Source of the DNA: Candidatus Omnitrophota bacterium
GTDB lineage: Bacteria; Omnitrophota; Gorgyraeia; Pluralincolimonadales; Pluralincolimonadaceae
Direction of reading: 5' to 3'
Assembly: GCA_028716565.1 (NCBI GenBank)
Contig: JAQUPL010000003.1
Span: 1,473-65,472, forward strand
DNA length: 64,000 bases
In this document: positions 129-58,761 of the stretch, one piece after another
How positions within the stretch are numbered: position 1 is the first letter of the stretch
How the letters are laid out: each line of letters opens with the position of its first letter
The notes under the pieces: model-generated
The model's input: the letters and a program-made list of their open reading frames with translations, nothing else
Told to the model about the DNA's origin: nothing
Database searches by the model: none
Translations under genes and position numbers: made by a program

Positions 129-175
129 AATTTAGCAGTATCATGTTGAAAAGTTTTTGAAAGGCAAAATCGGAT

Positions 176-4662: not shown

Positions 4663-4684
4663 GGAAGAGAGGAAAAACAAAGAA

Positions 4685-5413
4685 ATGACTTTAAACAAAA
4701 GGAATGATTATGGTGATTATCAGTTCGGCCAAGCTGATAAAGGCAATTCTCTGACAAAAGCAACGGATTTCGTCAAAGAAATCGTAAAGGATGCATCTCC
4801 TTTTTTGGATGCCTGCGAATATTATAATTCTGAAAAAAAACTAGGTAAAGCTCCTGCGGTTGAATTGCCAGGCGGCAAACTTGTTATCGCCCCAGATGTT
4901 ATTTGCCGAACAAAAAAGGGAAATATTTTTTGGATTGAAGCAAAAGATAAATCTCAAAGATTCTACAAACCCGACACAGGAGCTGATCTTTTTCAAGTGT
5001 ATGGTTGGTATAAGGTTTGGTCTAAGTTAAATCAGCCAGTATTTATAGTTTTTAAAGACCCTGATTTTGATTCATGTTTGCCAAGAAAAACTGTAGATCG
5101 AAAATTGGTCGAGACCTTTAAAAAGCGCTGGGAATTGTTTAAAGGGAGACCTTATGGTGGCTGGTTAAACACATTACTTGTACTCCAAGAACAATATCCT
5201 CAGATTTTCGCTGAAAGATCAAGAGATATTCCCATGTTTATTTTCTATTTCCTCGTTTATTTAATGCAAGGCAATATTACTTGGGAGAAAATAATTAACG
5301 ATTTAGACAGCGACACTATTGGTGACATCCAAAAGGAAATTAGCGCTTATTTTGAGGGAAGATTGATAAATGAAAATGAAATTGAAGCGAAAATAAAAGA
5401 ACTTTTTTCTTAA
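4685..5413 (+). CDS. Hypothetical protein with Hjc/YraN-like PD-(D/E)xK core (cassette gene A)
   Basis: ATG at 4685 is preceded by GAGGAAGAGAGG. Ordered E (VELPGG) ... PD (IAPDVI) ... IFWIEAKDKS. The 292-aa ORF-track start at 4535 overlaps res and is probably too far upstream. Confidence 0.5.
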   Translation: MTLNKRNDYGDYQFGQADKGNSLTKATDFVKEIVKDASPFLDACEYYNSEKKLGKAPAVELPGGKLVIAPDVICRTKKGNIFWIEAKDKSQRFYKPDTGADLFQVYGWYKVWSKLNQPVFIVFKDPDFDSCLPRKTVDRKLVETFKKRWELFKGRPYGGWLNTLLVLQEQYPQIFAERSRDIPMFIFYFLVYLMQGNITWEKIINDLDSDTIGDIQKEISAYFEGRLINENEIEAKIKELFS

Positions 5414-5499
5414 AATGTACGTTCAAAACAAAGCGAATAACACCCCTTATCAAAGTCTTTTCATAAGAGCTTTTTTCTCTCATTTAAAATATAGGGTAA

Positions 5500-6312
5500 A
5501 TGCCGGCACGCATGGCACTGAGAAAAACAAGAAACGTGTCTATGGATAAGTATGTTACCAGCAAGACGGGCGTTAAGGTTTATAGGGATTATCGCGATCA
5601 GGTAACGATAGATAAAGACAACCCACTTCTTAAGACTAAAGCAAGCCTACCGAGAGAAACCTATAACAGAGGAATCATAAAAGGACTATCCAGATTCGGT
5701 AGTGAGAATAGTGAAGACATCAAGACTTGGAATGTATTTAGATCGCTACAATTGAATAAAAACATGAAAAAGTATTATGGATTGATAGGCTTGCAGGATG
5801 ATTGTGAGAGAATGCTATTCTGGGGGATGGATGCTGATACCTGCAAATTCGACAAAGACTTAAAATCGGTTCTTGATAAAATAGAACCGCCTACATTATG
5901 GACCGTGCAACAGACAGAGCCAGATGTTGTGATTATAGGAAAGAATTCAGTTGTATTTAATGAGTCAAAGCTAGGCAAGCCCGAGGCTAATATCGATGCG
6001 TGGAACCGCAAAGATGAGTTTTCAGATAAGCATAAGCTTTATAGAAAGAATGCCGAAAAATACTTTAAGAAAAGTTTTATAAATGACTTCGATTTACAGG
6101 GTAGGAGGTTTTATCAATTGGTCCGTAATTACATAATAGGCTCAAGTTTTGCTGAAAAATTAAATAAAAAGTTTTATTTAACGACTTTGGTTAGCAAAGA
6201 CAATAAGGCGATAAGTGGCCTATCCCACAAGGCAGAATTTGATCTGTTTTGCTCAAACTTGCAAGGTAGCTCTACTTGCTATTTATTGACTTGGGACCAA
6301 TTGGATAGTTAG
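5500..6312 (+). CDS. Hypothetical protein with second PD-(D/E)xK-like core (cassette gene B)
   Basis: 270 aa. TEPDVVIIGKNSVVFNESKLGK gives D...ExK. Start uncertain; alternative ATGs at 5512 and 5542. Confidence 0.45.
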   Translation: MPARMALRKTRNVSMDKYVTSKTGVKVYRDYRDQVTIDKDNPLLKTKASLPRETYNRGIIKGLSRFGSENSEDIKTWNVFRSLQLNKNMKKYYGLIGLQDDCERMLFWGMDADTCKFDKDLKSVLDKIEPPTLWTVQQTEPDVVIIGKNSVVFNESKLGKPEANIDAWNRKDEFSDKHKLYRKNAEKYFKKSFINDFDLQGRRFYQLVRNYIIGSSFAEKLNKKFYLTTLVSKDNKAISGLSHKAEFDLFCSNLQGSSTCYLLTWDQLDS

Positions 6313-6383
6313 TTCGGGAAAACTTAGAGCGATCCAAGAGATGCCAGCGCGTAATAAATATTCTGCGTGGACGTGAGGAAGAA

Positions 6384-7124
6384 GTGAGGAAATCTCCAAA
6401 CAATAGCAGATACTTGAGGATAGATACTCGACCATTTTGGCGTACTGTCATTGTCTATACAGAAAAGGAAAAGAAAGAGATTCAGGCATATTTCCCAAAG
6501 GAAAAGCAAAAGGTTGCTCTGAAGGAAACTGCAGAGCATGTTTCTACATTGGTTAGATGGTTGAGCCCGGATATAACCCTAAAAAATATTAAACGTAAGG
6601 AAAGCGTCCAGCAGTTGCAGGCATTACATGATCATCTGCAGTCTTTAGAAAATACATTGCAAGCTTATTTACAGCAAGGCTCACATCAAAATACAATTAA
6701 GCTTAAGCAGCAATTTTATAGTTTTATTCATCCGGAATACCCCCAGATAACATTGCAGACATTAAACGATTTAATTTTGTATCTTAAATTAGCATGTAAA
6801 GAAGTTATGAAAAATCCCGGAAAACCTGGATGGAAAGATCAGAGCTATCATGAAGCCGTTGAGAACTTAGCTGCCGTTTGGAAGAACCATACCAATAAGG
6901 AGCCCAAGCTCCAAAATAAGTGCTATAAAGTTGACGAATATCAAAATAGTCAAAAGACGTGCGGGCCGTTTCTGGACTATCTCAATATCTCCATTAAATC
7001 CGCTATTTGTCATGCCAATAAACAGCGTAGAAAAAAAATCTCCCTAAATGTAAGTCTTGCCAATGTCGCCAGAGATGTCATTCGTTGCCGGAAAAAATCT
7101 ATGGCGGAAATCTCTTCAAAATAG
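6384..7124 (+). CDS. Hypothetical protein (cassette gene C), basic C-terminal tail
   Basis: 246 aa. GTG start inside the duplicated GTGAGGAAgaaGTGAGGAA. No motif recognised. Low GC, same strand and spacing as A and B. Confidence 0.4.
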   Translation: MRKSPNNSRYLRIDTRPFWRTVIVYTEKEKKEIQAYFPKEKQKVALKETAEHVSTLVRWLSPDITLKNIKRKESVQQLQALHDHLQSLENTLQAYLQQGSHQNTIKLKQQFYSFIHPEYPQITLQTLNDLILYLKLACKEVMKNPGKPGWKDQSYHEAVENLAAVWKNHTNKEPKLQNKCYKVDEYQNSQKTCGPFLDYLNISIKSAICHANKQRRKKISLNVSLANVARDVIRCRKKSMAEISSK

Positions 7125-7195
7125 CCCAAAAATCTCCATAAGCGTTATTAACGTCTTCACGCTATACTCTGCCTTATAAAGAAGAGGTAACGAAA

Positions 7196-7513
7196 ATGAA
7201 GACGTTAATATCAATCTCCGAAATCCAAATCATTCCAGTTAAACCAAATAACGGTCTCATAGCATTTGCCTCCTGCGTAGTAAATAATCAATTCTACATA
7301 GGCAATATTGCAATCTACACTTCTTTATCAAGTCAAGCCGGTTATAGGCTAGTCTATCCCACCAAAGTTTTACCTAACGGAAAGGCCTTAAGCTGTATTT
7401 ATCCTATTAACAAGATTGTAGGTAGCGCCGTACAGGAGGCTATTATAAATAAATATGAAGACTTGATGAAAAAGGTGGTGGGAAAGAATGAAGCGATTAA
7501 CGCCGGCTTGTAG
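7196..7513 (+). CDS. spoVG: SpoVG-family nucleic-acid-binding protein
   Basis: 105 aa. The pattern IQIIPVKPNNGLIAFASCVVNNQFYIGNIAIY...LPNGKALSCIYPINKIVGSAVQEAIINKY matches the SpoVG core (V..G..AfAS....N.F.I..I...nG...PIN...Q.AI...Y). RBS AAGAGG precedes it. Confidence 0.6.
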   Translation: MKTLISISEIQIIPVKPNNGLIAFASCVVNNQFYIGNIAIYTSLSSQAGYRLVYPTKVLPNGKALSCIYPINKIVGSAVQEAIINKYEDLMKKVVGKNEAINAGL

Positions 7514-7943
7514 ATCGTTTTTGTACTATTTAATGAATCAATATACTTACTTCAGTAAAAATGGGAAGTTGGCGGGAGATGGGTCATTTTTTAAAGCAGA
7601 CTCTGAAGCGGCAGGGTATTTGGGTGTATGCCCAAGAACAATCAAAAGGTGCAGAGGTCACTTAAAGGAGATAGGTAAAATAAAAGCCGCAGAGGGTAAA
7701 TGGAGTGGTAATGCCACACGATATTGGCTATTAGAAAAGGATGACAAAATGTCACCCTTTCAGTCAGGCATAAAGGACGACAAATTGTCCGCAAAGGTTG
7801 ACAAATTGTCCAATAAAGGGTGTCAAAATGTTACCCCAAATAAAGAAAAGAAAGAGATAAATCAAGAGACATTAAATGATCTTCAAATACAAGAAATGCA
7901 CAATGCATTTCAAGAAACTATCAAAAAATCTTTCTCCAAATAA
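7488..7943 (+). CDS. RepA_N-like replication initiator / winged-helix DNA-binding protein
   Basis: N-terminus FLYYLMNQYTYFSKNGKL...GSFFKADSEAAGYLGVCPRTIKRCRGHLKEIGKI fits the RepA_N pattern (KNGW.DENG.VYI.FT.EEL...LGIS..TV.KA.KELEE.GLI). RBS GGTGG. Followed by an iteron-like region. Confidence 0.5.
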   Translation: MKRLTPACRSFLYYLMNQYTYFSKNGKLAGDGSFFKADSEAAGYLGVCPRTIKRCRGHLKEIGKIKAAEGKWSGNATRYWLLEKDDKMSPFQSGIKDDKLSAKVDKLSNKGCQNVTPNKEKKEINQETLNDLQIQEMHNAFQETIKKSFSK

Positions 7944-7958
7944 AGGAGGTTCGTCAAA

Positions 7959-8147
7959 ATGAAATCATTAACGCCGATAAAGGCGATTAGAGCCAAATGC
8001 CTTATCTGCTCAGCGCAGCAACCATCAGAGGTCCGTAACTGCGTGATATTAGACTGCCCTTTATTTCACTACAGGTTTGGCAAGAACCCAAATAGGGGTG
8101 GCATAGGGGGCCAAACTTCAATTCCTGTACAGGAAAACAGTAGCTGA
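7959..8147 (+). CDS. Small Zn-ribbon protein (CxxC...CxxxxC)
   Basis: 62 aa with CLIC...CVILDC. RBS AAGGAGG lies 7 nt upstream. Confidence 0.4.
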   Translation: MKSLTPIKAIRAKCLICSAQQPSEVRNCVILDCPLFHYRFGKNPNRGGIGGQTSIPVQENSS

Positions 8148-8149
8148 GT

Positions 8150-8375
8150 AGGGGTTATTGGCCGGAAGCCAGCAGAAGCATATCTGGCTAACCCTAAAAG
8201 TATCAATTTGAATATACGTGCGTGAGTGCGTAAAAAATGAGGGAAATAGGCAATATAAAAAAGGTAACAAGGTAATGAAGGTAATGTATATAAAAAGGTA
8301 AGAAAGTAATGTGAAATAAGGTAAAAAGGTTCGAAAGGTTCGGTAAATGCACCTAAAAAGCAGGAAACCCAAGCT
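8150..8375. repeat. AT-rich iteron-like direct-repeat block (AAGGTAA x6, AAAGGTTCG x2, GTGCGT x2)
   Basis: Seen directly: AAGGTAAcAAGGTAATGAAGGTAATG...AAGGTAAG...AAGTAATG...AAGGTAAAAAGGTTCGAAAGGTTCGG, and GTGCGTGAGTGCGT at 8218-8231. Non-coding, between the Zn-ribbon gene and xis. Confidence 0.5.
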
Positions 8376-8405
8376 TAAATGGCAGGGAATGGAAGCATAG
8401 GTTAT

Positions 8406-8591
8406 ATGGAAAAACGATTTTTAGGCATGGAAGAAGCTTCTGAATACTTAGGCTTAACCAAGGGGACTCTCTATGGCTGGGTTTGCCACAAGAAGATCCC
8501 TTACTTAAAAATAGGCCGACTGGTAAAGTTTGATCTGCGCGAGATAGAGGCCTGGCTTAAAGACAGGAGGGTAAAAAGTGTCGAATTATAG
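8406..8591 (+). CDS. xis: Excisionase / AlpA-type HTH DNA-binding protein
   Basis: EASEYLGLTKGTLYGWVCHKKIPYLKIGRLVKFDLREIEAWL matches the excisionase-family HTH. Alternative starts at 8379 and 8427. Confidence 0.6.
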   Translation: MEKRFLGMEEASEYLGLTKGTLYGWVCHKKIPYLKIGRLVKFDLREIEAWLKDRRVKSVEL

Positions 8592-8676
8592 CTTGACTTC
8601 CCCCTCACTTCAGGGTAGTCTTGTGACTGACGGCTATACTATAACACATTGAAATACAATAGGTTATATCAAAAAT

Positions 8677-9762
8677 ATGGCGATAAGAGAACGCGACGGT
8701 AAATACTTTATAGACTATTACGCCAATGGACACAGGGTTCGCGAGGCCATAAGCGGCAGCAGGGCTCTTGCCGAAAAAGTCTTACGCAAGAGACAGAGCG
8801 CGATTGATGAGAACAGATACTTGGATATCAAGCGCAGCGAAAAGATCAGATTTGAGGATTTCCTCGAAGACTACCTTGAGCACCATTCGAAGCTAAATAA
8901 CCGCTCCTGGAAACGCGCCGAGATACCAAACATGAAGCGCCTTAAGGCGTACTTTTCAGGGCGCCTTTTGCAGGAAATCACCCCTCTCGATGTCGAGAAG
9001 TTTAAGGCCAAAACTTTAACCGAGGTCAGCCCCGCCACAACCAATCGTTGCCTCGCGCTTCTTAAGTCCATGTTTAATAAGGCGACCATCTGGGGAAAGC
9101 TTAACGGCCCGAACCCGGTTAAGGGGATAAAGCTATTCAGAGAAGAGAGCCGGCTTCGTTTTCTTGAGAAAGAAGAGATCGCCACGCTCCTTAAGTATTG
9201 CAACGGATACTTATATCCAGTCGTTACCGTTGCTTTGCATACCGGAATGCGAAAGTCAGAGATCCTAAACCTTAAATGGCATGATGTCGATTTTAGCCGC
9301 GATAACATATATTTAAGCCAGACTAAGAACGGGGAGAAAAGAGAGGTTTCCATGAACTCCCTGGTGAGGTCAACGCTTATCAAAGTAAGGAAGCATCCGA
9401 GCAGCCCTTATATTTTTGTAAACGCAAAGGGAAAACCCTATACTGATATACGAAAATCATTCCACGCAGCCCTGCATAAGGCCGGCATAAGAGACTTTAG
9501 GTTCCACGACCTAAGGCATACCTTTGCCTCGCAATTGGCGATGGCAGGGGTGGACCTGAACTCCATCAGGGAGCTTATGGGGCATAAGTCAATCAAGATG
9601 ACGCTACGCTACAGCCACCTATCGTCCGGCCATAAAAAACGAGCCGTTGAGGCATTAAACAACCAGATAGGCACGATTTGGGCACAAGAGCCGGTTAACA
9701 AGACAGAGGAAACGGCCACACCGTCACAATTGTTGACAAATTCGGGGGTTATGGTAATATGA
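8677..9762 (+). CDS. int: Tyrosine site-specific integrase
   Basis: 361 aa. C-terminal catalytic box HDLRHTFASQLAMAGVDLNSIRELMGHKSIKMTLRYSHL (R...HxxR...Y). Confidence 0.9.
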   Translation: MAIRERDGKYFIDYYANGHRVREAISGSRALAEKVLRKRQSAIDENRYLDIKRSEKIRFEDFLEDYLEHHSKLNNRSWKRAEIPNMKRLKAYFSGRLLQEITPLDVEKFKAKTLTEVSPATTNRCLALLKSMFNKATIWGKLNGPNPVKGIKLFREESRLRFLEKEEIATLLKYCNGYLYPVVTVALHTGMRKSEILNLKWHDVDFSRDNIYLSQTKNGEKREVSMNSLVRSTLIKVRKHPSSPYIFVNAKGKPYTDIRKSFHAALHKAGIRDFRFHDLRHTFASQLAMAGVDLNSIRELMGHKSIKMTLRYSHLSSGHKKRAVEALNNQIGTIWAQEPVNKTEETATPSQLLTNSGVMVI

Positions 9763-9785
9763 AAATGGCGGACGACGAAAGCACG

Positions 9786-9835
9786 TCAGATTGTCGATCT
9801 GAAGACCGCGAGTTCAAATCTCGTCGGGCCCGCCA
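9786..9835 (+). other. attR: 3' half of tRNA-Asp(GUC), from anticodon arm to CCA, with no 5' half
   Basis: Anticodon arm TCAGA-ttGTCga-TCTGA, T-arm GCGAG-TTCAAAT-CTCGT, acceptor 3' strand CGGGCCC, discriminator G, CCA. The matching 5' strand GGGCCCG is absent upstream. Lies 24 bp after the int stop. Confidence 0.55.
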
Positions 9836-9891
9836 TGTTTTACCAGAAGGTCTTGAAAATGGATAAAATACACAAATAGGAATCAAACCAA

Positions 9892-9917
9892 GGCGTTAGG
9901 AAACTAACGCCTTTTTT
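9892..9917 (+). terminator. Intrinsic terminator (GGCGTTAG-gaaa-CTAACGCC then T6)
   Basis: Perfect 8-bp stem and U-tract just after the tRNA fragment. Consistent with the native tRNA-Asp terminator retained to the right of attR. Confidence 0.6.
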
Positions 9918-9971
9918 GTTTGAAAGGAAACCAAGGTGAAAACATTTCCGGGGCTAGAATAAGGAGGGGAA

Positions 9972-10679
9972 ATGGAATATGTAATAATTTTAATTACGTT
10001 AATACTAGCAATTGTCGGAATTTGGTTTAAAAATGAATCTTCTGGGAATGTAAACTTTATAATTATTTTATTACTCGTCACGTCTACTCTGTTGAGTATT
10101 TATCTTAAGTATTCAGATACCAAAAAGTATATTTATCAAAAAGATAGCGGCAGATTAACGTTTCGGATAAGGAATAATATATCTTATCCAACGTTTTCCA
10201 TAGGTTCGGCAAAACTTGTTAAAACTGGTAATGATTTCGTGCTTTTTAATATATTAGGGGACGATTTGGATGTAAAAATAGAAAAATCATACCTTTTCTG
10301 GAAATTATTTCCTCGTAGTCAGTATAAACTCAATCTTACGTTAAGAAACGAGAAAAACGAAATATTGGCAAAGGTTAAAGATAATGTTTGGCAAAGGAAT
10401 CCGATTTTAACGTTAGATAAAAATTTTACTAAAGATGCATTAGAGATTTTAGATAAAGAAGGGAATGTTATATTGCGCGTTAGAATTTTGGGTGATGTTT
10501 TAGATTTTTCAGGTAGGTTTTATAGCGATACAGGTGACGGTATCGCGTTATGTGAAAGCGTAGAGCCGAAGGGAGGGCTTATGGAAATAAAGCATAATGG
10601 CGAAAAGCTAGAAGCGAGAATTAAACCTATTTTCAAATACCCCTCTGCGGAGTATCCGGGAGTCTTAGAAAAGCATTAA
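9972..10679 (+). CDS. Hypothetical membrane-anchored protein (2 N-terminal TM helices), low GC
   Basis: 235 aa. RBS AGGAGGGG. Lies outside attR but still about 33% GC. Confidence 0.5.
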   Translation: MEYVIILITLILAIVGIWFKNESSGNVNFIIILLLVTSTLLSIYLKYSDTKKYIYQKDSGRLTFRIRNNISYPTFSIGSAKLVKTGNDFVLFNILGDDLDVKIEKSYLFWKLFPRSQYKLNLTLRNEKNEILAKVKDNVWQRNPILTLDKNFTKDALEILDKEGNVILRVRILGDVLDFSGRFYSDTGDGIALCESVEPKGGLMEIKHNGEKLEARIKPIFKYPSAEYPGVLEKH

Positions 10680-10760
10680 AATAGCATATATCGAAAATAG
10701 AAATTAGAGTGAAATATACGCAATTAGTGACGGACCAAAAGAGAAAATATAATATAAAAT

Positions 10761-25526: not shown

Positions 25527-25603
25527 CGCGGGGTGGAGCAGCCTGGTAGCTCGCAAGGCTCATAACCTTGAGGTCAGAGGTTCAAATCCTCTCCCCGCTA
25601 CCA
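25527..25603 (+). tRNA. tRNA-Met (CAT), initiator-like
   Basis: First 27 nt identical to E. coli tRNA-fMet (CGCGGGGTGGAGCAGCCTGGTAGCTCG). The 1:72 pair is a C:U mismatch. The anticodon stem has only 2 of the 3 G:C pairs. Confidence 0.8.
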
Positions 25604-25716: not shown

Positions 25717-26544
25717 ATGAGAGGCTTGAAGGTACTGATAGGCGCAGCAATGATAGCGTGTTGTTTGAGCAATGCAGGGCGGTGCGAAGATTTAAACAGC
25801 AGAAAGATGAATCCAATAATATCAGATTTAATTATCCGGTCGGTAGCCGGCAAGCTCCGTATTCCGGAAGAGAAATTCACGGTAGCCGATATCTCGTACG
25901 TCAAGTCCGGGGGCAACAATTATGCGGGTAATGCGAATGTTACCATGGCGGGCGCAGGAACGAAGACCACCTTCCGGGTATCTTATTCCATGATATCCGA
26001 TAATAGGACAGTTGCCCTGGTGTTAGACAATCCAACGTCGGCCATTCAGGCTGCTATCTCAAATGAAACGGATAAGGGATATCGCCTTCCCAGCGACAAC
26101 AGCCGGTCATCCGGAAGCGCCAAGCCGATCACTGCGCAATACGGCGATTTTAAATGGGGAATGCCTAAAGCAGAGGCCCGCGAATTAGCGCTATCCCAGG
26201 GCAAAGAAAACGTGAGTGTATATGCGGCAAATGACCCCGAAGGGAACATTTTTCAATTCGACGACGTTCTTCTTGATAAGCGCGTCATAGTAAAACTTTA
26301 TTTTACCCCAAACAGCGAAAAGCTTTTCAAGGTGTCAATAAAGGGTTTAGATGCTTTCCACGGCGATGCCCTGATCTCATCCCTGAATAAAAAGCACGGT
26401 AAATACGCGGCATCGATGCCGGATGAAAGATATTATTGGGGCAGCAGCAAGGAAGGAGACAGGATCGAATTATCAAAAGGAGAAGGCCTGTTACTTTATA
26501 GCAACGCGGAAGGCCTGGCGCTTGCAGAAAAAGAGAAACAATAA
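25717..26544 (+). CDS. Secreted hypothetical protein, lower GC than its neighbours
   Basis: Signal peptide. 275 aa. No motif recognised. Confidence 0.5.
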   Translation: MRGLKVLIGAAMIACCLSNAGRCEDLNSRKMNPIISDLIIRSVAGKLRIPEEKFTVADISYVKSGGNNYAGNANVTMAGAGTKTTFRVSYSMISDNRTVALVLDNPTSAIQAAISNETDKGYRLPSDNSRSSGSAKPITAQYGDFKWGMPKAEARELALSQGKENVSVYAANDPEGNIFQFDDVLLDKRVIVKLYFTPNSEKLFKVSIKGLDAFHGDALISSLNKKHGKYAASMPDERYYWGSSKEGDRIELSKGEGLLLYSNAEGLALAEKEKQ

Positions 26545-26718: not shown

Positions 26719-28011
26719 ATGATCGAAAGATACACCCTGCCCAGGATGGGTAAGATCTGGGAAGACCAGAACCGTTTCCAGCGGATGCTCGACGTGGAGC
26801 TAATGGCCTGCGAGGCGTTCGCGAGGAAGAAACTTATACCAAATTCCGCATTATCCGAGATCAAAAGGCGCGCCCGCTTCGACGTAGACCGCATCAAAGA
26901 GATCGAAAAAGAGACCAAGCACGACGTGATCGCTTTCATAAAGAGCATCTCCGAGAACGTCGGGCCGGACGCCAAATATATCCACATGGGCCTCACCTCA
27001 AGCGATGTCCTCGATACGGGGCTCTCGCTCCAGATGAGGGACGCGGCAGATATCCTTATCGACGACCTCAAGAGGTTCCTCATAGCGTTAGAGAGAAAAG
27101 CCAAAAAATACAAGAACACCCCGTGCGTCGGCAGGACACACGGGGTGCACGCCGAGCCGATGACGTTCGGCCTGAAATTCGCGCTTATTTACGCCGAGAT
27201 ACAGCGTGATATCGCCAGGATGGAAGCCGCGCGCAAGGGGATAAACGTGGGCAAATTATCCGGCGCGGTCGGGACATTCGCCAACGTCGACCCGTGGGTG
27301 GAGGAATACGTCTGCAAACGGCTGAAGCTTGAGCCCGCGCCGATATCGACGCAGGTCATCCAGCGCGACAGGCACGCGCAGTTCCTGACGACTATAGCCA
27401 TAATAGGCGGCACGCTCGAGAAATTCGCGACAGAGATAAGGGCGCTCCAGAGGACCGAGATCCTCGAAGCGGAGGAGCCGTTTACCGAAGGGCAGAAGGG
27501 CTCATCGGCGATGCCGCACAAGAGGAATCCTGTGATATGCGAACGCATAGCAGGCCTCGCGAGGGTCCTGCGCGGGAACTCGCTGGCGGCGATGGAGAAT
27601 ATTTCGTTGTGGCACGAGAGGGACATATCGCACTCGTCTGTGGAGCGCGTCATAATCCCGGATTCGTGCATCCTCCTGGATTATATGCTGAACCTCGCCA
27701 CGGATGTGGCGATGCATATGGCTGTCTATCCGGAACGGATGATAGAGAACCTCGAGAGGACGAAGGGCCTGGTATTCTCGCAGAGGGTGCTTTTGGCGCT
27801 CATAGGCAAGGGGCTCACGAGGAATGAGGCGTATGACATGGTCCAGAAATGCGCGATGCGCGTCTGGAAGGAGAACATCGGGTTCAGTGCGATATTAACG
27901 GACGATATCGACGTCACGAAATACCTGACGCACGAGGAGGTGGAAGCCTGCTTCGACCCGGGCTATTACACCAAGAACGTCGACAGGATATACAAACGGT
28001 TGGGGCTATGA
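26719..28011 (+). CDS. purB: Adenylosuccinate lyase
   Basis: N-terminus ERYTLPRMGKIWEDQNRF. Fumarate-lyase signature SSAMPHKRNP. Confidence 0.85.
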   Translation: MIERYTLPRMGKIWEDQNRFQRMLDVELMACEAFARKKLIPNSALSEIKRRARFDVDRIKEIEKETKHDVIAFIKSISENVGPDAKYIHMGLTSSDVLDTGLSLQMRDAADILIDDLKRFLIALERKAKKYKNTPCVGRTHGVHAEPMTFGLKFALIYAEIQRDIARMEAARKGINVGKLSGAVGTFANVDPWVEEYVCKRLKLEPAPISTQVIQRDRHAQFLTTIAIIGGTLEKFATEIRALQRTEILEAEEPFTEGQKGSSAMPHKRNPVICERIAGLARVLRGNSLAAMENISLWHERDISHSSVERVIIPDSCILLDYMLNLATDVAMHMAVYPERMIENLERTKGLVFSQRVLLALIGKGLTRNEAYDMVQKCAMRVWKENIGFSAILTDDIDVTKYLTHEEVEACFDPGYYTKNVDRIYKRLGL

Positions 28012-28913
28012 CTGAAAAAGTAAAAGAAGAAGTTTTGCTTACCACCGAGAACATCCCGCTTAAATTCTTCAAACGCGGGAAGGTCCGCGATATCTACGAG
28101 CTTGACGGCAAATTGCTTATCGTCGCGACCGACAGGATATCATGTTTCGACGTGGTATTGTCCGAAGGCATCCCTTATAAAGGGAAGGTCCTGACACAGA
28201 TATCCAAGTTCTGGTTTGATTACCTGAAAGAACAGAGCGAGAACCACGCGGTGACGTTCGACATGGAATCGCTGCGCGATAAACTCGGCGATTCGACGGA
28301 TATATTAAAGGACCGCTCGATGCTGGTGAAGAGGACCCGGCCGCTTCCGATAGAATGCGTGGTCAGGGGATACCTCTCAGGTTCGGGGTGGAGGGAATAC
28401 AAGGAGACCGGCGAGATATGCTGCATCAAACTGCCGAAGGGCCTCAAGGAATCCGACCAGCTGCCCGAGCCGATATTTACCCCCTCGACCAAGGAGGATA
28501 TCGGCCACGACCTGAACATCACCGAGTTCGGCGCGAGGAAGAAGCTCGGCGACAGGCTTTATGAGCTCGTAAAGGGCAAGGCGATAGCGATATACAAGAA
28601 GGCCGCGGAATACGCGGATTCGAAAGGGATAATAATCGCCGACACGAAGTTCGAGTTCGGCGTTACCGAAGAGGGCAAGACGATACTTATCGATGAGGTC
28701 CTGACGCCGGATTCGTCGAGGTTCTGGCCAAAAGAGAAATACAAGCCGGGCGGGCCGCAGGCGAGTTTCGATAAGCAGTTCGTGCGGGATTATCTTGAAA
28801 GTTTAAATTGGCCCAAGGCCCCGCCGGCCCCTCACCTGCCCGAGGATATCATCAAAAAGACCAGCAAGAAGTATCTGGAGGCCTTAAGGAAATTAACCGA
28901 TAAGGAGCTCTAA
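28008..28913 (+). CDS. purC: SAICAR synthetase
   Basis: ATG overlaps the purB stop (ATGA). KVRDIYELDGKLLIVATDRISCFD. Confidence 0.8.
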   Translation: MTEKVKEEVLLTTENIPLKFFKRGKVRDIYELDGKLLIVATDRISCFDVVLSEGIPYKGKVLTQISKFWFDYLKEQSENHAVTFDMESLRDKLGDSTDILKDRSMLVKRTRPLPIECVVRGYLSGSGWREYKETGEICCIKLPKGLKESDQLPEPIFTPSTKEDIGHDLNITEFGARKKLGDRLYELVKGKAIAIYKKAAEYADSKGIIIADTKFEFGVTEEGKTILIDEVLTPDSSRFWPKEKYKPGGPQASFDKQFVRDYLESLNWPKAPPAPHLPEDIIKKTSKKYLEALRKLTDKEL

Positions 28914-31805
28914 GTGCTGTGGCGCGTTGAAGTATGCGATAGGAACAACGGCTTCGACTCCGGCGTCAAGAGGGATATAGAGGACCTGGGAATAAAAGGC
29001 GTCGAAACGGTCGAGGTCGCGCAGGTATATATAATCGAAGGCAATGTTTCCCGGTCCGGGATAAAGAGGATCGCAGGGGAATTGCTTACCGACCCTGTTA
29101 CCCAGGTTTATTCATTCAGGTCGAGCCCCATAACCGGCAGGAATGACCGGGCGAAGAATAAGGCCGTCGTCGAGGTGGCCTATAACGCCGGGGTGATGGA
29201 CCCGGTCGAGGAGAGCGTGAGGAAAGGCATCCTCGATCTCGGCGTAAAAGGCGTCGAGTCGGTAAAGACAGCAAAAAAATATATCATTAACGGGAATGTG
29301 TCCGGGAGCCGGCTTAAGACGATAAGCGAAAAGCTCCTTTTCAATAAGGTCATCCAGCATATCGTCACCGGTCCGGATTCCTATAACTTTAAAAACCCTC
29401 CGCAATACCATTTTAAATTTACAACGGTAGGCCTCTCGGGCTCTTCTGATAAAGGTCTCGAGAATATAAGCAAGAAAGGCCAATTATTCCTGGATCTCAC
29501 CGAGATGCGCAGGATAAAGGAGTATTTTACCGTCCTCGGGCGCGAGCCGGCCGATGTCGAGCTTGAGACGCTCGCGCAGACGTGGTCCGAGCATTGCGGC
29601 CACAAGACATTCCGAGGCCTGATAGATTACGAGTCCGGCGGAAAAAGGCGCTTCATAAACAACCTCCTTAAAGAGACGATAATGAAAGCGACCGCCGAGC
29701 TCAAGAAGCCGTGGTGCGTCTCGGTATTCAAGGATAATTCCGGGGTCATAAGATTTAACAATAGATATAACGTCTGCTTCAAGGCCGAGACGCATAACCA
29801 TCCGTCGGCGATAGAACCGTACGGCGGCGCGAATACGGGCTTGGGCGGCGTCATACGCGACCCGCTCGGCACCGGCCTAGGCGCGAAGCCGATCTTAAAT
29901 ACCGACGTATTCTGCTTCGGCGAGCCTGATTACGCTTTTAACCGCCTGCCGAAGGGCGTCCTTCACCCTAAGAGAGTGATGAAGGGCGTGGTCGCCGGCG
30001 TGCGCGATTACGGCAACAAGATGGGCATACCGACGGTCAACGGCGCGGTGCTCTTTGACAACAGGTACCTCGGCAATCCCCTGGTCTATTGCGGGAATGT
30101 CGGCATTATGCCGAAAGAAAAGTCTTTTAAAGAGGTTGAGAGCGGGGACATGGTCGTCCTCGTGGGAGGGAAGACCGGCCGCGACGGTATACACGGCGCG
30201 ACATTCTCGTCCGGGGAATTGACCTCGGAGTCGGAGCAGGTCTCAGCGCAGGCGGTCCAGATCGGAAATCCCATCGAGGAAAAAAAGATGGCCGATTGTA
30301 TCCTGAAGGCGCGCGACCTGGGCCTGTATGACGCGATAACAGATTGCGGCGGCGGCGGGCTGTCGAGCGCGGTAGGCGAGATGGGCGAGAAGACCGGCGT
30401 CAGGATCGACCTCGACAGGATACCGCTCAAATACGAGGGGCTGACCTATACCGAGATATGGATATCAGAGGCGCAGGAGAGGATGGTCCTCTCGGTGCCG
30501 AAGAACAAAGTAAAAAGACTGCTCGAGGTCTTCGAAAGAGAGGATGTCGAGGCGACGGTGATCGGCGAGTTTACCCGCACGAAAAAACTGGAACTTTTTT
30601 ATAAAAGGAACAAGGTCTGCGACCTCGATATGAAATTCCTGCACGACGGCCTGCCGAAGACCGTAAGGAAGGCGAGATGGAACAGGCCGAAGCGCGCCGA
30701 GCCGCGGTTCGCGTGCCCGAAGGACCTGACCCCGTCGCTCTTAAGGATATTATCCGACTGGAACGTCTGCAGCAAGGAATGGATAATAAGGCAATATGAC
30801 CACGAGGTCCAGGCCGGCTCGGTCATAAAACCGCTTGTCGGCGTAAATAACGACGGGCCGTCCGACGCCGCGGTAGCCAGGCCTATATTAGATTCGGATA
30901 AAGGCGTGATAATATCGAACGGGATAAATCCGAGGTACGGAGAGATCGATCCGTACTGGATGGCGGCGTCGAATATCGACGAGGCGCTGAGGCAGATAAT
31001 TGCGGTAGGCGGCGACCTGAAAGAGGTGGCGCTCCTGGATAATTTCTGCTGGGGAGACACTGACCAGCCGTCGCAATTGGGCAGCCTCGTGAGGGCGGCC
31101 CAGGGTTGTTATGACATGTCGAAAGGTTTCCAGGCGCCTTTTATCTCGGGCAAAGACAGCCTTCATAATGAATATATCGTCGGCAAAAAACGCGTGTCGA
31201 TCCCCGGGACCCTGCTCATTTCGGCTATCAGCGTGGCGGATAACGTAAAGAAATGCATCACCATGGATTTCAAGGAAGCGGGCGACCTGATATATGTAGT
31301 CGGGATGACATATGACGAGCTCGGCGGTTCATATTATTATAAGGCCCGCGGGGTCCTCGGAAATTCCGTGCCGACCGTCAACGCGAAACGCAGCCGCGCG
31401 CTGATGGAGAGGTTGAGTCGCGCGATAAGAGCCGGCCTCGTGAACGCCTGCCACGATTGCTCGGAGGGCGGCATAGGGGTGGCGGCGGCCGAGATGGCGT
31501 TTGCCGGAGGGTTCGGCGCCGAGATAAAACTGGAAAAAGCGCCTTTCAAGGTAAAATACGGCGCGCGAGGGAAGAAGCGCGACGACATCATATTATTTTC
31601 GGAGTCGAATACCCGTTTCATCGTCGGCGTCAGCCCGGAAAAAAAGAAGAGGTTCGAGAAGGCGATGAGGGCCGCGGCTATCGGGCTCATAGGCGGTGTC
31701 CTCGAGGAGAAATATTTTACGGTCTACGGCGCCGAAGGGGATATCGTCGTCAGGACTGACCGAAAAGAACTGAAGGAGGCCTGGCAGAGGCCGTTAAGAT
31801 GGTAG
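28914..31805 (+). CDS. purL: FGAM synthase II (PurL) with two tandem N-terminal PurS domains fused
   Basis: GTG start right after the purC stop. Residues 1-75 and 85-160 are two PurS-like repeats. The PurL body follows (ETHNHPSAIEPYGGANTG...). Confidence 0.8.
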   Translation: MLWRVEVCDRNNGFDSGVKRDIEDLGIKGVETVEVAQVYIIEGNVSRSGIKRIAGELLTDPVTQVYSFRSSPITGRNDRAKNKAVVEVAYNAGVMDPVEESVRKGILDLGVKGVESVKTAKKYIINGNVSGSRLKTISEKLLFNKVIQHIVTGPDSYNFKNPPQYHFKFTTVGLSGSSDKGLENISKKGQLFLDLTEMRRIKEYFTVLGREPADVELETLAQTWSEHCGHKTFRGLIDYESGGKRRFINNLLKETIMKATAELKKPWCVSVFKDNSGVIRFNNRYNVCFKAETHNHPSAIEPYGGANTGLGGVIRDPLGTGLGAKPILNTDVFCFGEPDYAFNRLPKGVLHPKRVMKGVVAGVRDYGNKMGIPTVNGAVLFDNRYLGNPLVYCGNVGIMPKEKSFKEVESGDMVVLVGGKTGRDGIHGATFSSGELTSESEQVSAQAVQIGNPIEEKKMADCILKARDLGLYDAITDCGGGGLSSAVGEMGEKTGVRIDLDRIPLKYEGLTYTEIWISEAQERMVLSVPKNKVKRLLEVFEREDVEATVIGEFTRTKKLELFYKRNKVCDLDMKFLHDGLPKTVRKARWNRPKRAEPRFACPKDLTPSLLRILSDWNVCSKEWIIRQYDHEVQAGSVIKPLVGVNNDGPSDAAVARPILDSDKGVIISNGINPRYGEIDPYWMAASNIDEALRQIIAVGGDLKEVALLDNFCWGDTDQPSQLGSLVRAAQGCYDMSKGFQAPFISGKDSLHNEYIVGKKRVSIPGTLLISAISVADNVKKCITMDFKEAGDLIYVVGMTYDELGGSYYYKARGVLGNSVPTVNAKRSRALMERLSRAIRAGLVNACHDCSEGGIGVAAAEMAFAGGFGAEIKLEKAPFKVKYGARGKKRDDIILFSESNTRFIVGVSPEKKKRFEKAMRAAAIGLIGGVLEEKYFTVYGAEGDIVVRTDRKELKEAWQRPLRW

Positions 31806-32608
31806 CGATAAAGAGAAGGCCGAAGGTCATAGTCCTCCGCGCGGCCGGGACGAATTGCGATGAGGAGACGGCTTTCGCGTTCGAACACGCCGGCGCGAGA
31901 TCCGAAGCCGTTCATATAAACCAGCTTGTCAGCGGAGAGAAGAAGCTGCGCGACTACCATATCATGGCCGTGCCGGGCGGGTTCACTTACGGCGACGACG
32001 TCGGTTCGGGAAAGATACTCGCGAACGAATTAAAATACAAATTGGCCGGGGACCTCGGGAAATTCGTGGGCGCCGGAAAACTTATAATCGGTATATGCAA
32101 TGGTTTCCAGGTCCTCGTAAAGGCGGGCCTTCTGCCGGGAAAGGGAGTAAACGGCGAGCAGCTGGAAGCGACGCTTACGACTAACGACACGGCGCGCTAT
32201 GAGGACAGGTGGGTCTATCTTAAGGCCGCCAAGGGGCTGAACATCGGATTCCGGAACAAGTGCGTTTGGACCGGTGGCATCGAACGCATGATATATGTGC
32301 CCGCCGCGCACGGCGAAGGAAAATTCATCCCGAAGGACGACGAGGTCCTGGGGAAATTATGGGCGAACGGGCAGGTTGTTTTCAGGTATGCCGACCCGTA
32401 CGGCAAGCTCGCCGGGTTCCCTTGGAACCCCAACGGGTCGGTCGATGACATAGCCGGCGTGTGCGACATCACCGGCAGGATATTCGGGCTTATGCCGCAT
32501 CCGGAGAGGCATCTATTCGCTTCCCAGCACCCGCGCTGGACGCGCGGCGAGGCGCAGAGGGAAGGGGATGGGGTGAGTATTTTCAGGAACGGGGTAAAAA
32601 ATGTCTAG
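31799..32608 (+). CDS. purQ: FGAM synthase glutaminase subunit
   Basis: VLRAAGTNCDEETAFAFEHAG. Catalytic GICNGFQVL. HPER. Confidence 0.8.
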   Translation: MVAIKRRPKVIVLRAAGTNCDEETAFAFEHAGARSEAVHINQLVSGEKKLRDYHIMAVPGGFTYGDDVGSGKILANELKYKLAGDLGKFVGAGKLIIGICNGFQVLVKAGLLPGKGVNGEQLEATLTTNDTARYEDRWVYLKAAKGLNIGFRNKCVWTGGIERMIYVPAAHGEGKFIPKDDEVLGKLWANGQVVFRYADPYGKLAGFPWNPNGSVDDIAGVCDITGRIFGLMPHPERHLFASQHPRWTRGEAQREGDGVSIFRNGVKNV

Positions 32609-32616: not shown

Positions 32617-34014
32617 ATGGGCGATAAGATCAAACACCACTGCGGACTGTTCGGCGTCTACGGGCACAAGGACGCGGCGCGGCTTACATATCTCGGACTG
32701 TATGCGCTACAGCACCGCGGGGAGGAGTCCGCAGGTATAGCGTCTTTCGACGGCGAAACGCATTTACACAAAGGGATGGGCCTGGTCCCGGAAGTCTTCA
32801 ACGAAGGGATCCTGGCCGGCCTGAAAGGCGACATCGCGATAGGCCATGTCAGGTATTCGACCACCGGGTCGACGACGCTGAAGAACGCGCAGCCGGTCGT
32901 GGTTGATTATTCCCGCGGCACAGTGGCTGTCGGACACAACGGCAACCTCGTCAACGGCGCGCGCCTGCGCGACGAGCTCGAGGCCCGCGGCTCGATATTC
33001 CAGACGACTCTCGATTCGGAGATAATAATACACCTGTTAGCGCGGCCAGAGCACAAAAATTTCGAGGAAGGGCTTGTCTATACTCTCAAGCAGCTGAAAG
33101 GCGCCTTCTCGCTCGTAATGATGAAAGAGGATATGCTCGTCGGGGTCCGCGACCCGCATGGCTGGAGGCCGCTCTGCCTCGGGAAACTCGGCGACGCATA
33201 CGTATTGGCCAGCGAGACGACGGCACTCGACCTTATCGAGGCGGAATTCGTCCGCGAGATCGAGCCGGGAGAGGTCTTGTATATCACGAAGAAAGGCCTG
33301 CGCTCGACCAAGCCGTTCGGCGAGAGCAAGAAGGTATCGCATTGCATATTCGAGCATGTTTATTTCGCGAGGCCGGATTCTTTCATCTTCGGCGAGTCGG
33401 TCCACCTGGTACGGCAGAGGCTCGGCCACAGGCTCGCGCAGGAGCATCCGGTAGAGGCGGACCTCATCATCCCGGTGCCGGACTCGGGCACGCCGGCCGC
33501 GCTCGGCCTTTCGCACGAGTCGGGGATACCGCTAGAGATGGGCATAATAAGGAACCATTACATAGGCAGGACGTTCATCCAGCCGCTGCAGCATATACGC
33601 GATTTCAGCGTAAAGATAAAATTGAACCCGATAAAGGCGCTCCTGAAGGACAAGAAGGTGATCGTCGTCGACGATTCGATCGTCCGCGGGACGACCTCGC
33701 GCGCGAGGATCAAGAAACTTTATGACGCGGGCGCGAAAGAGGTCCATATGAGGATATCGTGCCCGCCGATAAAACACCCGTGTTTTTACGGGATAGATTT
33801 CCCGACCAAGAAGGAGCTGATAGCGGCGACGCATACGATAGAAGAGATAAGGAAGTTCCTGGGAGTCACCACGCTCGGCTATCTTTCGGTCGAGGGGTTA
33901 TTGAGCTGCGTCTCATGCCCGGACAATTACTGCACCGCGTGTTATACCGGGGACTATCCGGTGCCGTTCGGCGGAGAGGCAAATAAATTCGCGACAGAAC
34001 ATAAAGGGTATTGA
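32617..34014 (+). CDS. purF: Amidophosphoribosyltransferase
   Basis: Propeptide MGDKIKHH, then Ntn Cys CGLFGVYGH. PRTase motif VIVVDDSIVRGTT. C-terminal Cys cluster. Confidence 0.8.
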   Translation: MGDKIKHHCGLFGVYGHKDAARLTYLGLYALQHRGEESAGIASFDGETHLHKGMGLVPEVFNEGILAGLKGDIAIGHVRYSTTGSTTLKNAQPVVVDYSRGTVAVGHNGNLVNGARLRDELEARGSIFQTTLDSEIIIHLLARPEHKNFEEGLVYTLKQLKGAFSLVMMKEDMLVGVRDPHGWRPLCLGKLGDAYVLASETTALDLIEAEFVREIEPGEVLYITKKGLRSTKPFGESKKVSHCIFEHVYFARPDSFIFGESVHLVRQRLGHRLAQEHPVEADLIIPVPDSGTPAALGLSHESGIPLEMGIIRNHYIGRTFIQPLQHIRDFSVKIKLNPIKALLKDKKVIVVDDSIVRGTTSRARIKKLYDAGAKEVHMRISCPPIKHPCFYGIDFPTKKELIAATHTIEEIRKFLGVTTLGYLSVEGLLSCVSCPDNYCTACYTGDYPVPFGGEANKFATEHKGY

Positions 34015-34015: not shown

Positions 34016-35044
34016 ATGGGCCTTACGTATAAAAAAGCGGGCGTCGATATCCGCAAGGCGAGCCGTTTCGTCGAGGCGATAAAAAAGCACACGAAAGCGA
34101 CGGCGCGCAAAGGCGCGGACTGCAGGCTCGGCGGGTTCGGCGGGCTCTTCGATCTCAGGGCGGCGGGGTATAAAGACCCCGTACTCGTCTCGTCTACCGA
34201 CGGCGTAGGCACGAAACTGAAGATCGCCTTCCTGGCGGGCAAGCATGATACCGTCGGCATTGATATGGTCGCGATGAACGTCAATGACATCCTAACCTCG
34301 GGCGCCGAGCCGCTCTTCTTCCTTGATTATATCGCTACCGGAAAGATAGATAAAAAAGTACTGACCGATGTCATGAAGGGCATCGCCGAGGGATGCAGGC
34401 AGGCGGGTTGCGCGCTGATAGGCGGCGAGACCGCGGAGATGCCGGCGTTCTATAAAGAAGGGGAATATGACCTCGCCGGATTTTGCGTCGGGGCGGTCGA
34501 GAGGAAAGGGATAGTCGACAGTTCGAAGATGAAAGCCGGCGATATCGCAATAGGGCTCGCCTCGAACGGCCTGCATTCAAATGGGTATTCATTGGTCAGG
34601 AAAGTATTTTCACAGGCCGAGCAGAAGGCCCTTTCAAAAGAGCTGCTCCGTCCGACGAGGATATATGTCAAGCCCATATTGGAACTGAAGAAAAAGGCGG
34701 AGATAAAAGGCATCGCGCATATAACCGGCGGCGCCTATTTCGAGAAATTGCCGCGCATCGTCCCTAAGGACAAGACCCTGGTCATCGAGAAAGGCTCATG
34801 GGTAGTCCCGGAGATATTCAGGAGGATACAGCGGAAGGGGAAGATAGACGAGATAGAGATGTTCCGCACCTTCAATATGGGACTGGGGCTTATAATAGTT
34901 ATAGGGCCCCAGGATTGCGGCGAGGCCAGGAAGGTCTTCGCAAAATGGAAGATAGATTCGTGGATAGTCGGCTCGGTCGATAAAGGGAAGGCAGAGTCCC
35001 GCGCGAAACGAGGAGGCAAAGTAAGGATAATATGCGGGTTTTAG
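34016..35044 (+). CDS. purM: AIR synthetase
   Basis: YKKAGVDI...GGFGGLFDL. Confidence 0.8.
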   Translation: MGLTYKKAGVDIRKASRFVEAIKKHTKATARKGADCRLGGFGGLFDLRAAGYKDPVLVSSTDGVGTKLKIAFLAGKHDTVGIDMVAMNVNDILTSGAEPLFFLDYIATGKIDKKVLTDVMKGIAEGCRQAGCALIGGETAEMPAFYKEGEYDLAGFCVGAVERKGIVDSSKMKAGDIAIGLASNGLHSNGYSLVRKVFSQAEQKALSKELLRPTRIYVKPILELKKKAEIKGIAHITGGAYFEKLPRIVPKDKTLVIEKGSWVVPEIFRRIQRKGKIDEIEMFRTFNMGLGLIIVIGPQDCGEARKVFAKWKIDSWIVGSVDKGKAESRAKRGGKVRIICGF

Positions 35045-36306
35045 TGGTCGGTTCGGGCGGGAGGGAGCACGCGCTCGCCTGGAAGATAAGGCAGTCGCCG
35101 TTGGTCGACAAAGTATTCTGCGCGCCGGGGAACGGCGGGATATCGCAGATCGCCGAATGCGTCGACATAAAAGCCGATGACATAGCCGCCCTGACAGCTT
35201 TCGCCTCTAGGAATAAGATGGACCTTACCGTCGTAGGGCCTGAGGCGCCGCTCTCTGGCGGTATAGTGGATAAATTCTGCGCGAACGGCCTCAGGGTATT
35301 TGGTCCGTCAAAGGAGGCTGCGCGGCTCGAGTCGAGCAAGGTCTTCATGAAAGAGCTCGCGAAAAAATACGGCATCCCGACCGCGAAATTCGAGGTTTTC
35401 ACCGACAGCGATGCCGCGAAAAAATACATAAAAGGATTTAAGGGCAGGTTTGTCGTGAAAGCGGACGGGCTCGCCGCAGGAAAAGGCGTAGTCGTTTGTT
35501 CTGAAAAAGACGAAGGAATCGCCGCGGTGGAGGCGATGATGGAGCGTAAGATATTCAAGGACGCGGGCAAAAAAGTGGTGATCGAGGAATGCCTCGAAGG
35601 CGAAGAGGCGTCTATTATAGTCGTCACTGACGGGAAAGATGCCGTCCCTCTCGCCTCGGCGCAGGACCACAAGAGGATATTTGACGGGGACAAAGGCCCG
35701 AATACCGGCGGTATGGGCGCGTATTCGCCCGCGCCTGTCGTCCCGGAAGCGACAATGGATGCGGTGATGAAAGATATAATCAAGCCGGCGATAGAAGGGT
35801 TGCGCAAAGAGGGAATAAAATATACCGGCGCCCTGTACGCGGGGCTGATGATAGACGGCTCCGGGCCGAAACTGCTCGAGTTCAACTGCAGGTTCGGAGA
35901 TCCCGAGACCCAGGCGATACTTCCCCGCCTAAAAAGCGATTTCGTCGAATTGGTCGAGGCCTCGGTGGACGATGAGATAGATATTGCCTTGCTCGAGTGG
36001 GACGCGAGGCCGTGCGTCTCGGTGGTGCTCTCTTCGGGCGGGTATCCGGGGGAATATAAGACGGGTTTCGAGATCGAGGGGCTGGACGCCTTGGAAAAAA
36101 TGAAAGATGTCCACATCTTCCATGCCGGCACGAAGATGGCCGACGGGAAGATCGTGACCGCGGGCGGCCGGGTCCTTAGCGTGACGGCGCTCGGCCCGGA
36201 CATAAAAGAGGCGATAGAAAGATGTTATAACGCCGTAAATTTCATAGAGTTCGAGGGGATGCATTTCAGAAGGGATATAGGCTACAGGGCGCTAAACAGG
36301 AGATAA
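35032..36306 (+). CDS. purD: GAR synthetase
   Basis: MRVLVVGSGGREHALAWK. Confidence 0.85.
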   Translation: MRVLVVGSGGREHALAWKIRQSPLVDKVFCAPGNGGISQIAECVDIKADDIAALTAFASRNKMDLTVVGPEAPLSGGIVDKFCANGLRVFGPSKEAARLESSKVFMKELAKKYGIPTAKFEVFTDSDAAKKYIKGFKGRFVVKADGLAAGKGVVVCSEKDEGIAAVEAMMERKIFKDAGKKVVIEECLEGEEASIIVVTDGKDAVPLASAQDHKRIFDGDKGPNTGGMGAYSPAPVVPEATMDAVMKDIIKPAIEGLRKEGIKYTGALYAGLMIDGSGPKLLEFNCRFGDPETQAILPRLKSDFVELVEASVDDEIDIALLEWDARPCVSVVLSSGGYPGEYKTGFEIEGLDALEKMKDVHIFHAGTKMADGKIVTAGGRVLSVTALGPDIKEAIERCYNAVNFIEFEGMHFRRDIGYRALNRR

Positions 36307-58670: not shown

Positions 58671-58761
58671 GGAGAGGTGGCTGAGCGGTTGAAAGCGGCA
58701 GTCTTGAAAACTGTTGTGGGTGTTATGCCCACCCCGAGTTCGAATCTCGGCCTCTCCGCCA
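58671..58761 (+). tRNA. tRNA-Ser (TGA)
   Basis: Long variable arm. Anticodon loop CTTGAAA. CCA encoded. Confidence 0.8.

Follow-up and report, generated by a model that had tools for sequence, protein, structure and literature searches.

How is the PurS component of formylglycinamidine ribonucleotide (FGAM) synthetase supplied in a genome whose purine biosynthesis cluster would seem to have no purS gene? This question is raised by a 64,000-nt stretch of the Candidatus Omnitrophota contig JAQUPL010000003.1 (hereafter the window, to which all coordinates refer), in which an open reading frame (ORF) of 963 codons on the forward strand (28914..31805, as confirmed in the ORF list), here called purSSL, lies between purC and purQ. 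The initial annotation proposed that its product begins with two successive PurS-like repeats (about residues 1–75 and 85–160), continues as a small PurL and is accompanied by a separate glutaminase gene, purQ, starting at 31799. The N-terminal domain of large PurL, which in the textbook picture resembles a PurS dimer, would thus have been recreated in cis. The analysis presented below leads us to regard purSSL, with a probability of about 0.9, as a subunit of FGAM synthetase in a two-gene form, with one chain comprising two PurS units and PurL (PurSS-L) and a separate PurQ, and as the ordinary PurL of the Omnitrophota.

The PurS repeats, the PurL core and PurQ

Domains and families were assigned with Pfam and NCBIfam models, using the gathering or equivalog cutoffs. 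The Pfam search located the PurS family (PF02700) at residues 83–149 of PurSS-L, and the segment containing the second repeat (residues 81–169), when analyzed alone, scored 36.6 bits against the cutoff of 22.2. BLASTP comparison of residues 1–80 with residues 81–169 revealed 43% identity over 65 aa (E 4e-15), and the profile-profile comparison, carried out with repeat profiles built from 121 family members, confidently identified a relationship between the two segments (probability 99.2%, E 2e-19, aligned residues 3–67 and 4–71). Repeat 1 matches PF02700 at E≤0.01 in 31 of the 31 sampled family members (best E 3.7e-14), and a search of the PDB sequences with its profile finds PurS proteins of known structure (8j3n, 2yx5, 1t4a, 3d54_B, 1vq3, 2cuw and 1gtd). 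Both PurS motifs quoted in the initial annotation are present, EDLGIKGVETVEV at residues 23–35 of repeat 1 and LDLGVKGVESVKT at residues 107–119 of repeat 2; the latter repeat also carries the YN(P/A)GVMDPVEES motif and the invariant residues G93, V94, P97, S101, D108, L142 and N144. The hidden Markov model (HMM) and profile tests therefore yield two PurS units, as proposed, and not a single one or none. A non-PurS leader in the place of repeat 1 was also considered and is excluded by the BLASTP result, the profile comparison, the PF02700 matches in all sampled members, the PDB matches and the predicted fold. Searches with the family HMMs revealed no second PurS-like ORF in the 64-kb window and no other PurS-like ORF in the flanks of 80 related loci.

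The pattern of conservation indicates that both PurS repeats are under selection, although unequally: the mean identity of the family to the query is 67% in repeat 2 vs 51% in repeat 1, with the column entropy of 1.07 and 1.46 bits, respectively. Such unequal constraint is the expected outcome of turning a symmetric homodimer into an asymmetric single chain. The spacer between the repeats (residues 70–82) is essentially unconstrained, with a mean identity of 14%, variable length, a column entropy of 3.3 bits and a dip in the predicted local distance difference test score (pLDDT) of the structural model. The connector that follows repeat 2 (residues 151–181) is weakly conserved (34% mean identity), and the linker and the core reach 71–72%.

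The AlphaFold2 model of residues 1–175 (pLDDT 91.6) comprises two β-α-β-β-α-β units, the first of which consists of a strand (residues 2–9), a helix (16–24), a long β-hairpin (30–43), a second helix (47–58) and a final strand (64–69). In the Foldseek search of the PDB, the only significant matches of this model (E≤1e-3) were the N-terminal domains of large PurL (lgPurL), with TM-scores normalized by query length (TMq) of 0.58–0.67 over about 165 columns, and the next in rank were the PurS monomers 2cuw and 1vq3_A (about 75 columns, TM-scores normalized by target length of 0.52–0.67). The predicted N-terminal module thus corresponds to a covalent PurS pseudo-dimer in the position of the lgPurL N-domain. 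The model of the whole protein, based on 120 homologues (mean pLDDT 83.7, predicted TM-score 0.86), found its best PDB matches in the Salmonella lgPurL (1t3t and its mutants) and in the human FGAM synthetase (9nal, 9nb3), with TMq of 0.83–0.87 over about 1030 columns; the match to the small PurL (smPurL) of T. thermophilus (3viu) reaches TMq of only 0.65, because 3viu is devoid of the N-terminal part. The comparison with lgPurL suggested in the initial annotation thus reveals a model that resembles a large PurL without its glutaminase, and lends support to the idea of an N-domain recreated in cis.

The remaining part of the chain consists of the FGAR-AT linker (PF18072, 63.8 bits) at residues 182–231 and of two AIRS/AIRS_C pairs (two matches each to PF00586 and PF02769), and Pfam detected no GATase domain anywhere in the 963 residues. 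The linker holds the invariant motif AQTWSEHCxHKT, with the invariant columns at 216–232. Among the equivalog models, the smPurL model TIGR01736 was passed (619.1 bits vs the cutoff of 525.75; residues 195–961, model positions 3–714 of 718), a second smPurL model, NF002290, was not (595 vs 648 bits), and the three lgPurL models TIGR01735, NF003672 and TIGR01857 all failed by a wide margin (306.5, 352.2 and 379.8 bits vs 1123, 783 and 1057). The lgPurL HMMs run colinear with PurSS-L from residue 84 or 107 onwards. The Foldseek matches of the core include the T. thermophilus smPurL (3viu, 28% identity), the T. maritima PurL and lgPurL (1t3t). The downstream gene encodes a complete glutaminase subunit: it matches GATase_5 over profile positions 1–258 of 260 (265 bits), passes the PurQ equivalog TIGR01737 (196.6 bits vs 177.8) and retains the motifs of the catalytic triad, GICNGFQ (Cys100) and HPER (His234 and Glu236). 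Both the small-PurL body and the separate purQ at 31799 are thus corroborated.

Several points weigh against the assignment and have to be set beside this evidence. Repeat 1 alone (residues 1–80) scores 21.0 bits with PF02700 (E 3.8e-4), i.e. 1.2 bits below the gathering threshold of 22.2. The models of the N-domain are predictions, and their Foldseek matches to PurS monomers have weak E-values (0.1–0.25), with probabilities of 0.75–0.96. The absence of a free purS refers to 64 kb of this genome and to flanks of about 5 kb in the relatives. Finally, the function of purSSL and of its close relatives is predicted from sequences and models.

Distribution of the fusion and neighbouring fusion states

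The initial annotation called for the phylogenetic distribution of the fusion to be established. Among the proteins, the comparison included the best 120 clusters (62–89% identical to the query), whose members are 861–1013 aa long; the query is covered to 100% by 118 of them, to 99% by one and to 86% by another, the 861-aa P0027. Precomputed matches to PurS, the linker, AIRS and AIRS_C are found in each of these clusters, almost all share the start position of the query, and those that bear a name are described as PurL of Candidatus Omnitrophota or Omnitrophica. A scan of GTDB (one genome per species), in which the alignment of the N-terminal region was used as the query, revealed at least 566 confirmed relatives, and the statements on loci given below refer to the best 80 of them. 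Since the query was an alignment of closer relatives, these 80 loci are biased towards Omnitrophota and tell little about other phyla. Nearly all of the 80 come from Omnitrophota metagenome-assembled genomes (MAGs), PurSS is continuous with the PurL body in 80 of 80, and purQ lies downstream in each locus that reaches far enough. Of the 60 ORFs that lie entirely within their locus, 56 are 950–1025 aa long and four are interrupted (L028, L029, L046 and L066); the latter are probably due to frameshift errors, because the PurL homology continues past the break. PurSS-L is thus the standard PurL of Omnitrophota, present in hundreds of public genomes and annotated as PurL.

A few of the best 80 GTDB relatives are titled Planctomycetia, Latescibacteria, Patescibacteria or Undivivens. 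Several loci, including L008, L012, L013, L015 and L016, have an N-terminal module 48–63% identical to that of the window and the same operon, and bear the titles 'uncultured Planctomycetia/Planctomycetales', 'Patescibacteria group' or 'Latescibacteria'. It may be that submitters applied these titles loosely to Omnitrophota-like bins, in which case they would not represent true occurrences in those phyla.

The search with residues 1–175 against 1.84 billion representative proteins gave 907 matches at E≤1e-3, of which 150, representing clusters at 50% identity, were listed. Among these 150, 62 are proteins of 150–169 aa that match residues ~2–150 of the query in one stretch. Five proteins of this size were compared with Pfam, and three of them showed two PF02700 matches and two showed one; two of the scanned proteins are encoded on longer pieces of DNA, a 52-kb and a 194-kb contig. 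The free double-PurS proteins are 33–47% identical to residues 1–150 of the window protein, and judging from the number of clusters of this size the free form appears to be common, yet there seems to be no discussion of it in the literature searched. An example of the split state is the locus L081 of the Endomicrobiales MAG GCA_016930715.1 (positions 6001–8964), with purC, purSS (149 aa), purL (837 aa) and purQ in this order. The boundary between its purSS and purL consists of TAA-ATG only and is equivalent to residues ~150–173 of the window protein, within the poorly conserved connector; its PurL is 54% identical to residues 174–963.

The opposite, fully fused state (PurSS-L-Q) is represented by 2 of the 150 listed clusters, P0168 (MDD5528504.1, 1211 aa) and P0248 (MDD5771831.1, 1215 aa), both from unclassified bacterial MAGs and named 'PurL subunit' at NCBI. 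Both pass the smPurL and PurQ equivalogs and fail all three lgPurL models. From these scores, they look like a separate and recent origin of a large PurL. Split, two-gene and single-chain states are therefore all found among PurL cores that are about 50% identical, and a single stop codon or short indel suffices to turn one state into another. Provided that the clade arose independently of the classical lgPurL lineages, it might represent a second, recent and still ongoing stepwise-fusion route to a large PurL with all intermediates alive; we rate the chances of this as slightly short of even.

Or perhaps the direction of change was the reverse, i.e. an ancestral single-chain PurSS-L-Q shed its glutaminase to a separate gene, and PurSS-L is a derived breakdown product? 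The single-chain proteins are close enough for such a scenario (the identity of P0168 amounts to 52% with the window PurSS-L, aligned along its full 963 aa, and to 48% with the window PurQ), and the 7-nt overlap of purSSL and purQ is such that a small indel could convert one arrangement into the other in either direction. However, the core passes the smPurL model and PurQ passes its own, both being far below all three lgPurL models, and the equivalog profile of the single-chain relatives is the one to be expected of proteins fused late in this lineage. Two single-chain clusters among the 150 listed, against 62 of the size of a free double PurS, also argue against an ancestral single chain. Fission is thus unlikely, although it is the alternative that we take most seriously.

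An alternative of another kind concerns the upstream end of the fusion. As noted in the initial annotation, purSSL starts with GTG (28914) immediately after the TAA stop codon of purC (28911–28913), and the two genes share a reading frame with this single TAA between them, which brings to mind a programmed read-through of the stop codon and a PurC-PurSS-PurL polyprotein. In the 14 closest relatives (L001–L014) the gene order and the AAGGAG-N6-GTG junction are the same as in the window, and the in-frame TAA-GTG arrangement recurs in L001–L008, L010, L011 and L013. L009 and L012, however, have purSSL in another frame than purC, and the two genes overlap by GTGA; in most other Omnitrophota loci purC is not adjacent to purSSL; and a good Shine-Dalgarno sequence, AAGGAG (28902–28907), located within the final codons of purC and 6 nt upstream of the GTG, serves purSSL. 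The in-frame junction is thus not conserved and read-through was rejected as very improbable; because of the out-of-frame junctions in L009 and L012, the stop codon of purC is better interpreted in terms of translational coupling. The least credible alternative, to which we attach next to no weight, is the artificial fusion that the initial annotation had warned of, in which an assembly or sequencing error eliminated a stop codon, or introduced a frameshift, between purS or purSS and purL: a single-base error could indeed mimic a fusion where only TAA-ATG separates the genes, as in L081, and the four interrupted ORFs demonstrate that errors do occur at this locus in MAGs, but we reject it, since 120 protein clusters from independent samples have an uninterrupted ORF that starts at the same place, 56 of the 60 complete ORFs, taken from genomes of different species, are continuous as well, and the connector is translated in frame and weakly but measurably conserved.

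Comparison with known systems and proposed function

The closest published counterpart of the PurSS-L chain is the medium PurL (mdPurL), described for six methanogens (Brown et al. 2011, Biol Direct 6:63, PMC3261824): it is a smPurL extended at the N-terminus by about 200 residues, which occupy the position of the PurS-like domain. The mdPurL genomes have a separate purQ, purS is absent from five of the six, and the extension is reported to show only low sequence identity to PurS or lgPurL (PMC3261824). PurSS-L shares with mdPurL the smPurL-type core, the location of the additional residues (1–181, before the linker) at the position of the lgPurL N-domain, the separate purQ and the inferred role of the extension, the likeness to the archaeal extension being that of its published description. 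It differs in that the extension is recognizable from its sequence as two PurS repeats, and in that the host is a bacterium of the Omnitrophota. Among the literature searched, the term mdPurL was found in no paper other than that of Brown et al., and no paper was found on a bacterial PurSS-L form. The novelty of the window gene is nevertheless reduced, because its layout has already been described as mdPurL and is standard in Omnitrophota. The initial annotation was unaware of both facts when it called the arrangement an intermediate architecture, a term that is right as a description, whichever direction evolution took.

Like the three-protein complex of two PurS subunits, smPurL and PurQ (B. 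subtilis; T. maritima, 3D54), the window system contains two PurS units, one PurL and one PurQ. Unlike in that complex, a single chain holds both PurS units together with PurL, the two units have diverged (43% identity), and the gene order is purSSL followed by purQ, instead of purS-purQ-purL as in B. subtilis. With lgPurL (Salmonella 1T3T, human 9N9W) PurSS-L shares a predicted structure that superposes on residues ~1–1000, including the N-domain and the linker, but it carries no fused glutaminase and scores far below the lgPurL cutoffs; moreover, its N-domain, in contrast to that of lgPurL, retains clear PurS signatures, the identity of the two N-domains in the structural alignment being 9–15%. 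The free double-PurS proteins (about 150–160 aa, annotated as PurS, e.g. MBN1823360.1 from an Endomicrobiales MAG) resemble the N-terminal module, with tandem PF02700 matches in three of the five scanned. The split locus L081 displays the same purC-purSS-purL-purQ order as the window, but there a stop codon and an ATG make PurSS a polypeptide of its own.

The analyses described above show of which domains PurSS-L consists, how it is conserved, which fold it is predicted to adopt, which genes surround it and that the catalytic motifs are intact; complex formation, channelling and an adaptor role are inferred from the well-studied homologues, as follows. The enzyme is most likely FGAM synthetase, which acts in step 4 of de novo purine synthesis. 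PurQ, translated from the overlapping downstream gene, would dock on the PurSS-L chain in a 1:1 ratio, as judged from the homologous T. maritima PurS2-PurL-PurQ complex and the single-chain lgPurL. It would hydrolyse glutamine at Cys100, His234 and Glu236, and the ammonia would pass through an interdomain channel to the active site of PurL, where formylglycinamide ribonucleotide is expected to be activated by ATP and amidated to FGAM. PurSS is likely to be a non-catalytic adaptor that bridges the synthetase and the glutaminase and helps to couple them. Organisms that have smPurL depend on PurS (PMC3261824, PMC3815217), and for the N-domain of lgPurL a part in allosteric coupling and in the formation of the tunnel has been suggested (PMC7124931, PMC13013826). 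The fusion would replace the free purS, fix the 2:1 stoichiometry of PurS and PurL in cis and eliminate one step of assembly.

The practical effect of the assignment is small, since purSSL is a normal gene of purine biosynthesis and its relatives are already annotated as PurL. A caution nevertheless applies to pathway reconstruction: Omnitrophota would seem to lack purS, and this apparent absence is explained by the fusion of PurSS to PurL and not by a gap in the pathway. The resemblance between the lgPurL N-domain and a PurS dimer is visible here at the sequence level, with halves that are recognizable and diverging. With the unfused and the fully fused states in sister lineages, purSSL is one rung of a natural series of fusions. 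If the clade is indeed independent of the classical lgPurL, it could serve as a natural system for testing how a covalent PurS adaptor affects the coupling of the glutaminase and the formation of the ammonia channel.

The pur cluster and other parts of the window

The gene cluster has the order purB-purC-purSSL-purQ-purF-purM-purD, with overlapping or abutting junctions (Table 1); the overlap of purB and purC is an ATGA (28008–28011), and that of the purSSL stop and the purQ start covers 31799–31805. A purine riboswitch upstream of the cluster was considered and ruled out: no riboswitch or other RNA element was found there, the Rfam matches being tRNAs only. Just upstream of the cluster, and downstream of a tRNA-Met gene (25527–25603), there is an ORF of 275 aa (25717–26544) with a signal-peptide-like N-terminus and no NCBIfam match.

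Table 1. Coordinates of the pur genes and of the segments of PurSS-L in the window
Feature	Coordinates	Strand	Description and evidence
purB, adenylosuccinate lyase	26719..28011	+	first gene of the cluster; TIGR00928 540.9 bits
purC, SAICAR synthetase	28008..28913	+	PF01259 257.8 bits
purSSL (medium PurL)	28914..31805	+	963-aa putative FGAM synthetase subunit: PurS-PurS, linker, small-PurL core
PurS repeat 1, residues ~2–69	28917..29120	+	less conserved; Pfam, BLASTP, profiles
Spacer, residues 70–82	29121..29159	+	family conservation
PurS repeat 2, residues ~83–150	29160..29363	+	more conserved; PF02700
Connector, residues 151–181	29364..29456	+	34% identity; site of the stop and start codons in the split form of other lineages
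FGAR-AT linker, residues 182–231	29457..29606	+	PF18072 63.8 bits
FGAM synthetase core, residues 232–963	29607..31802	+	PurM-like AIRS/AIRS_C pseudo-dimer; Pfam, NCBIfam, Foldseek
purQ, separate glutaminase subunit	31799..32608	+	269 aa; GATase_5, TIGR01737
purF	32617..34014	+	TIGR01134 528 bits
purM	34016..35044	+	TIGR00878 436 bits
purD	35032..36306	+	TIGR00877 569 bits

The organism of the window and its closest relatives have no insertion between purSSL and purQ. In L015, a gene of the LOG family (PF03641, 'possible lysine decarboxylase'/nucleotide phosphoribohydrolase) is located between the two (7935–8597), and gaps of about 650–750 nt are found at the same place in about 30 other GTDB loci, e.g. 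L017, L020 and L022, the gap of L015 being the only one whose content was read.

Two further regions of the window deserve mention. Positions 1–10700 have a G+C content of 0.36–0.45, compared with 0.51–0.57 in the rest of the window, and encode a type III restriction-modification pair (N6_N4 methylase, 176–1945, and ResIII helicase/endonuclease, 1942–4662), three ORFs with no family match and a tyrosine integrase (8677–9762); this region is probably a horizontally acquired island. Near the other end, directly downstream of two tRNA-Ser genes (58671–58761 and 58844–58933), lies an ORF of 1334 aa (59088–63092) with an autotransporter β-domain and PATR passenger repeats.

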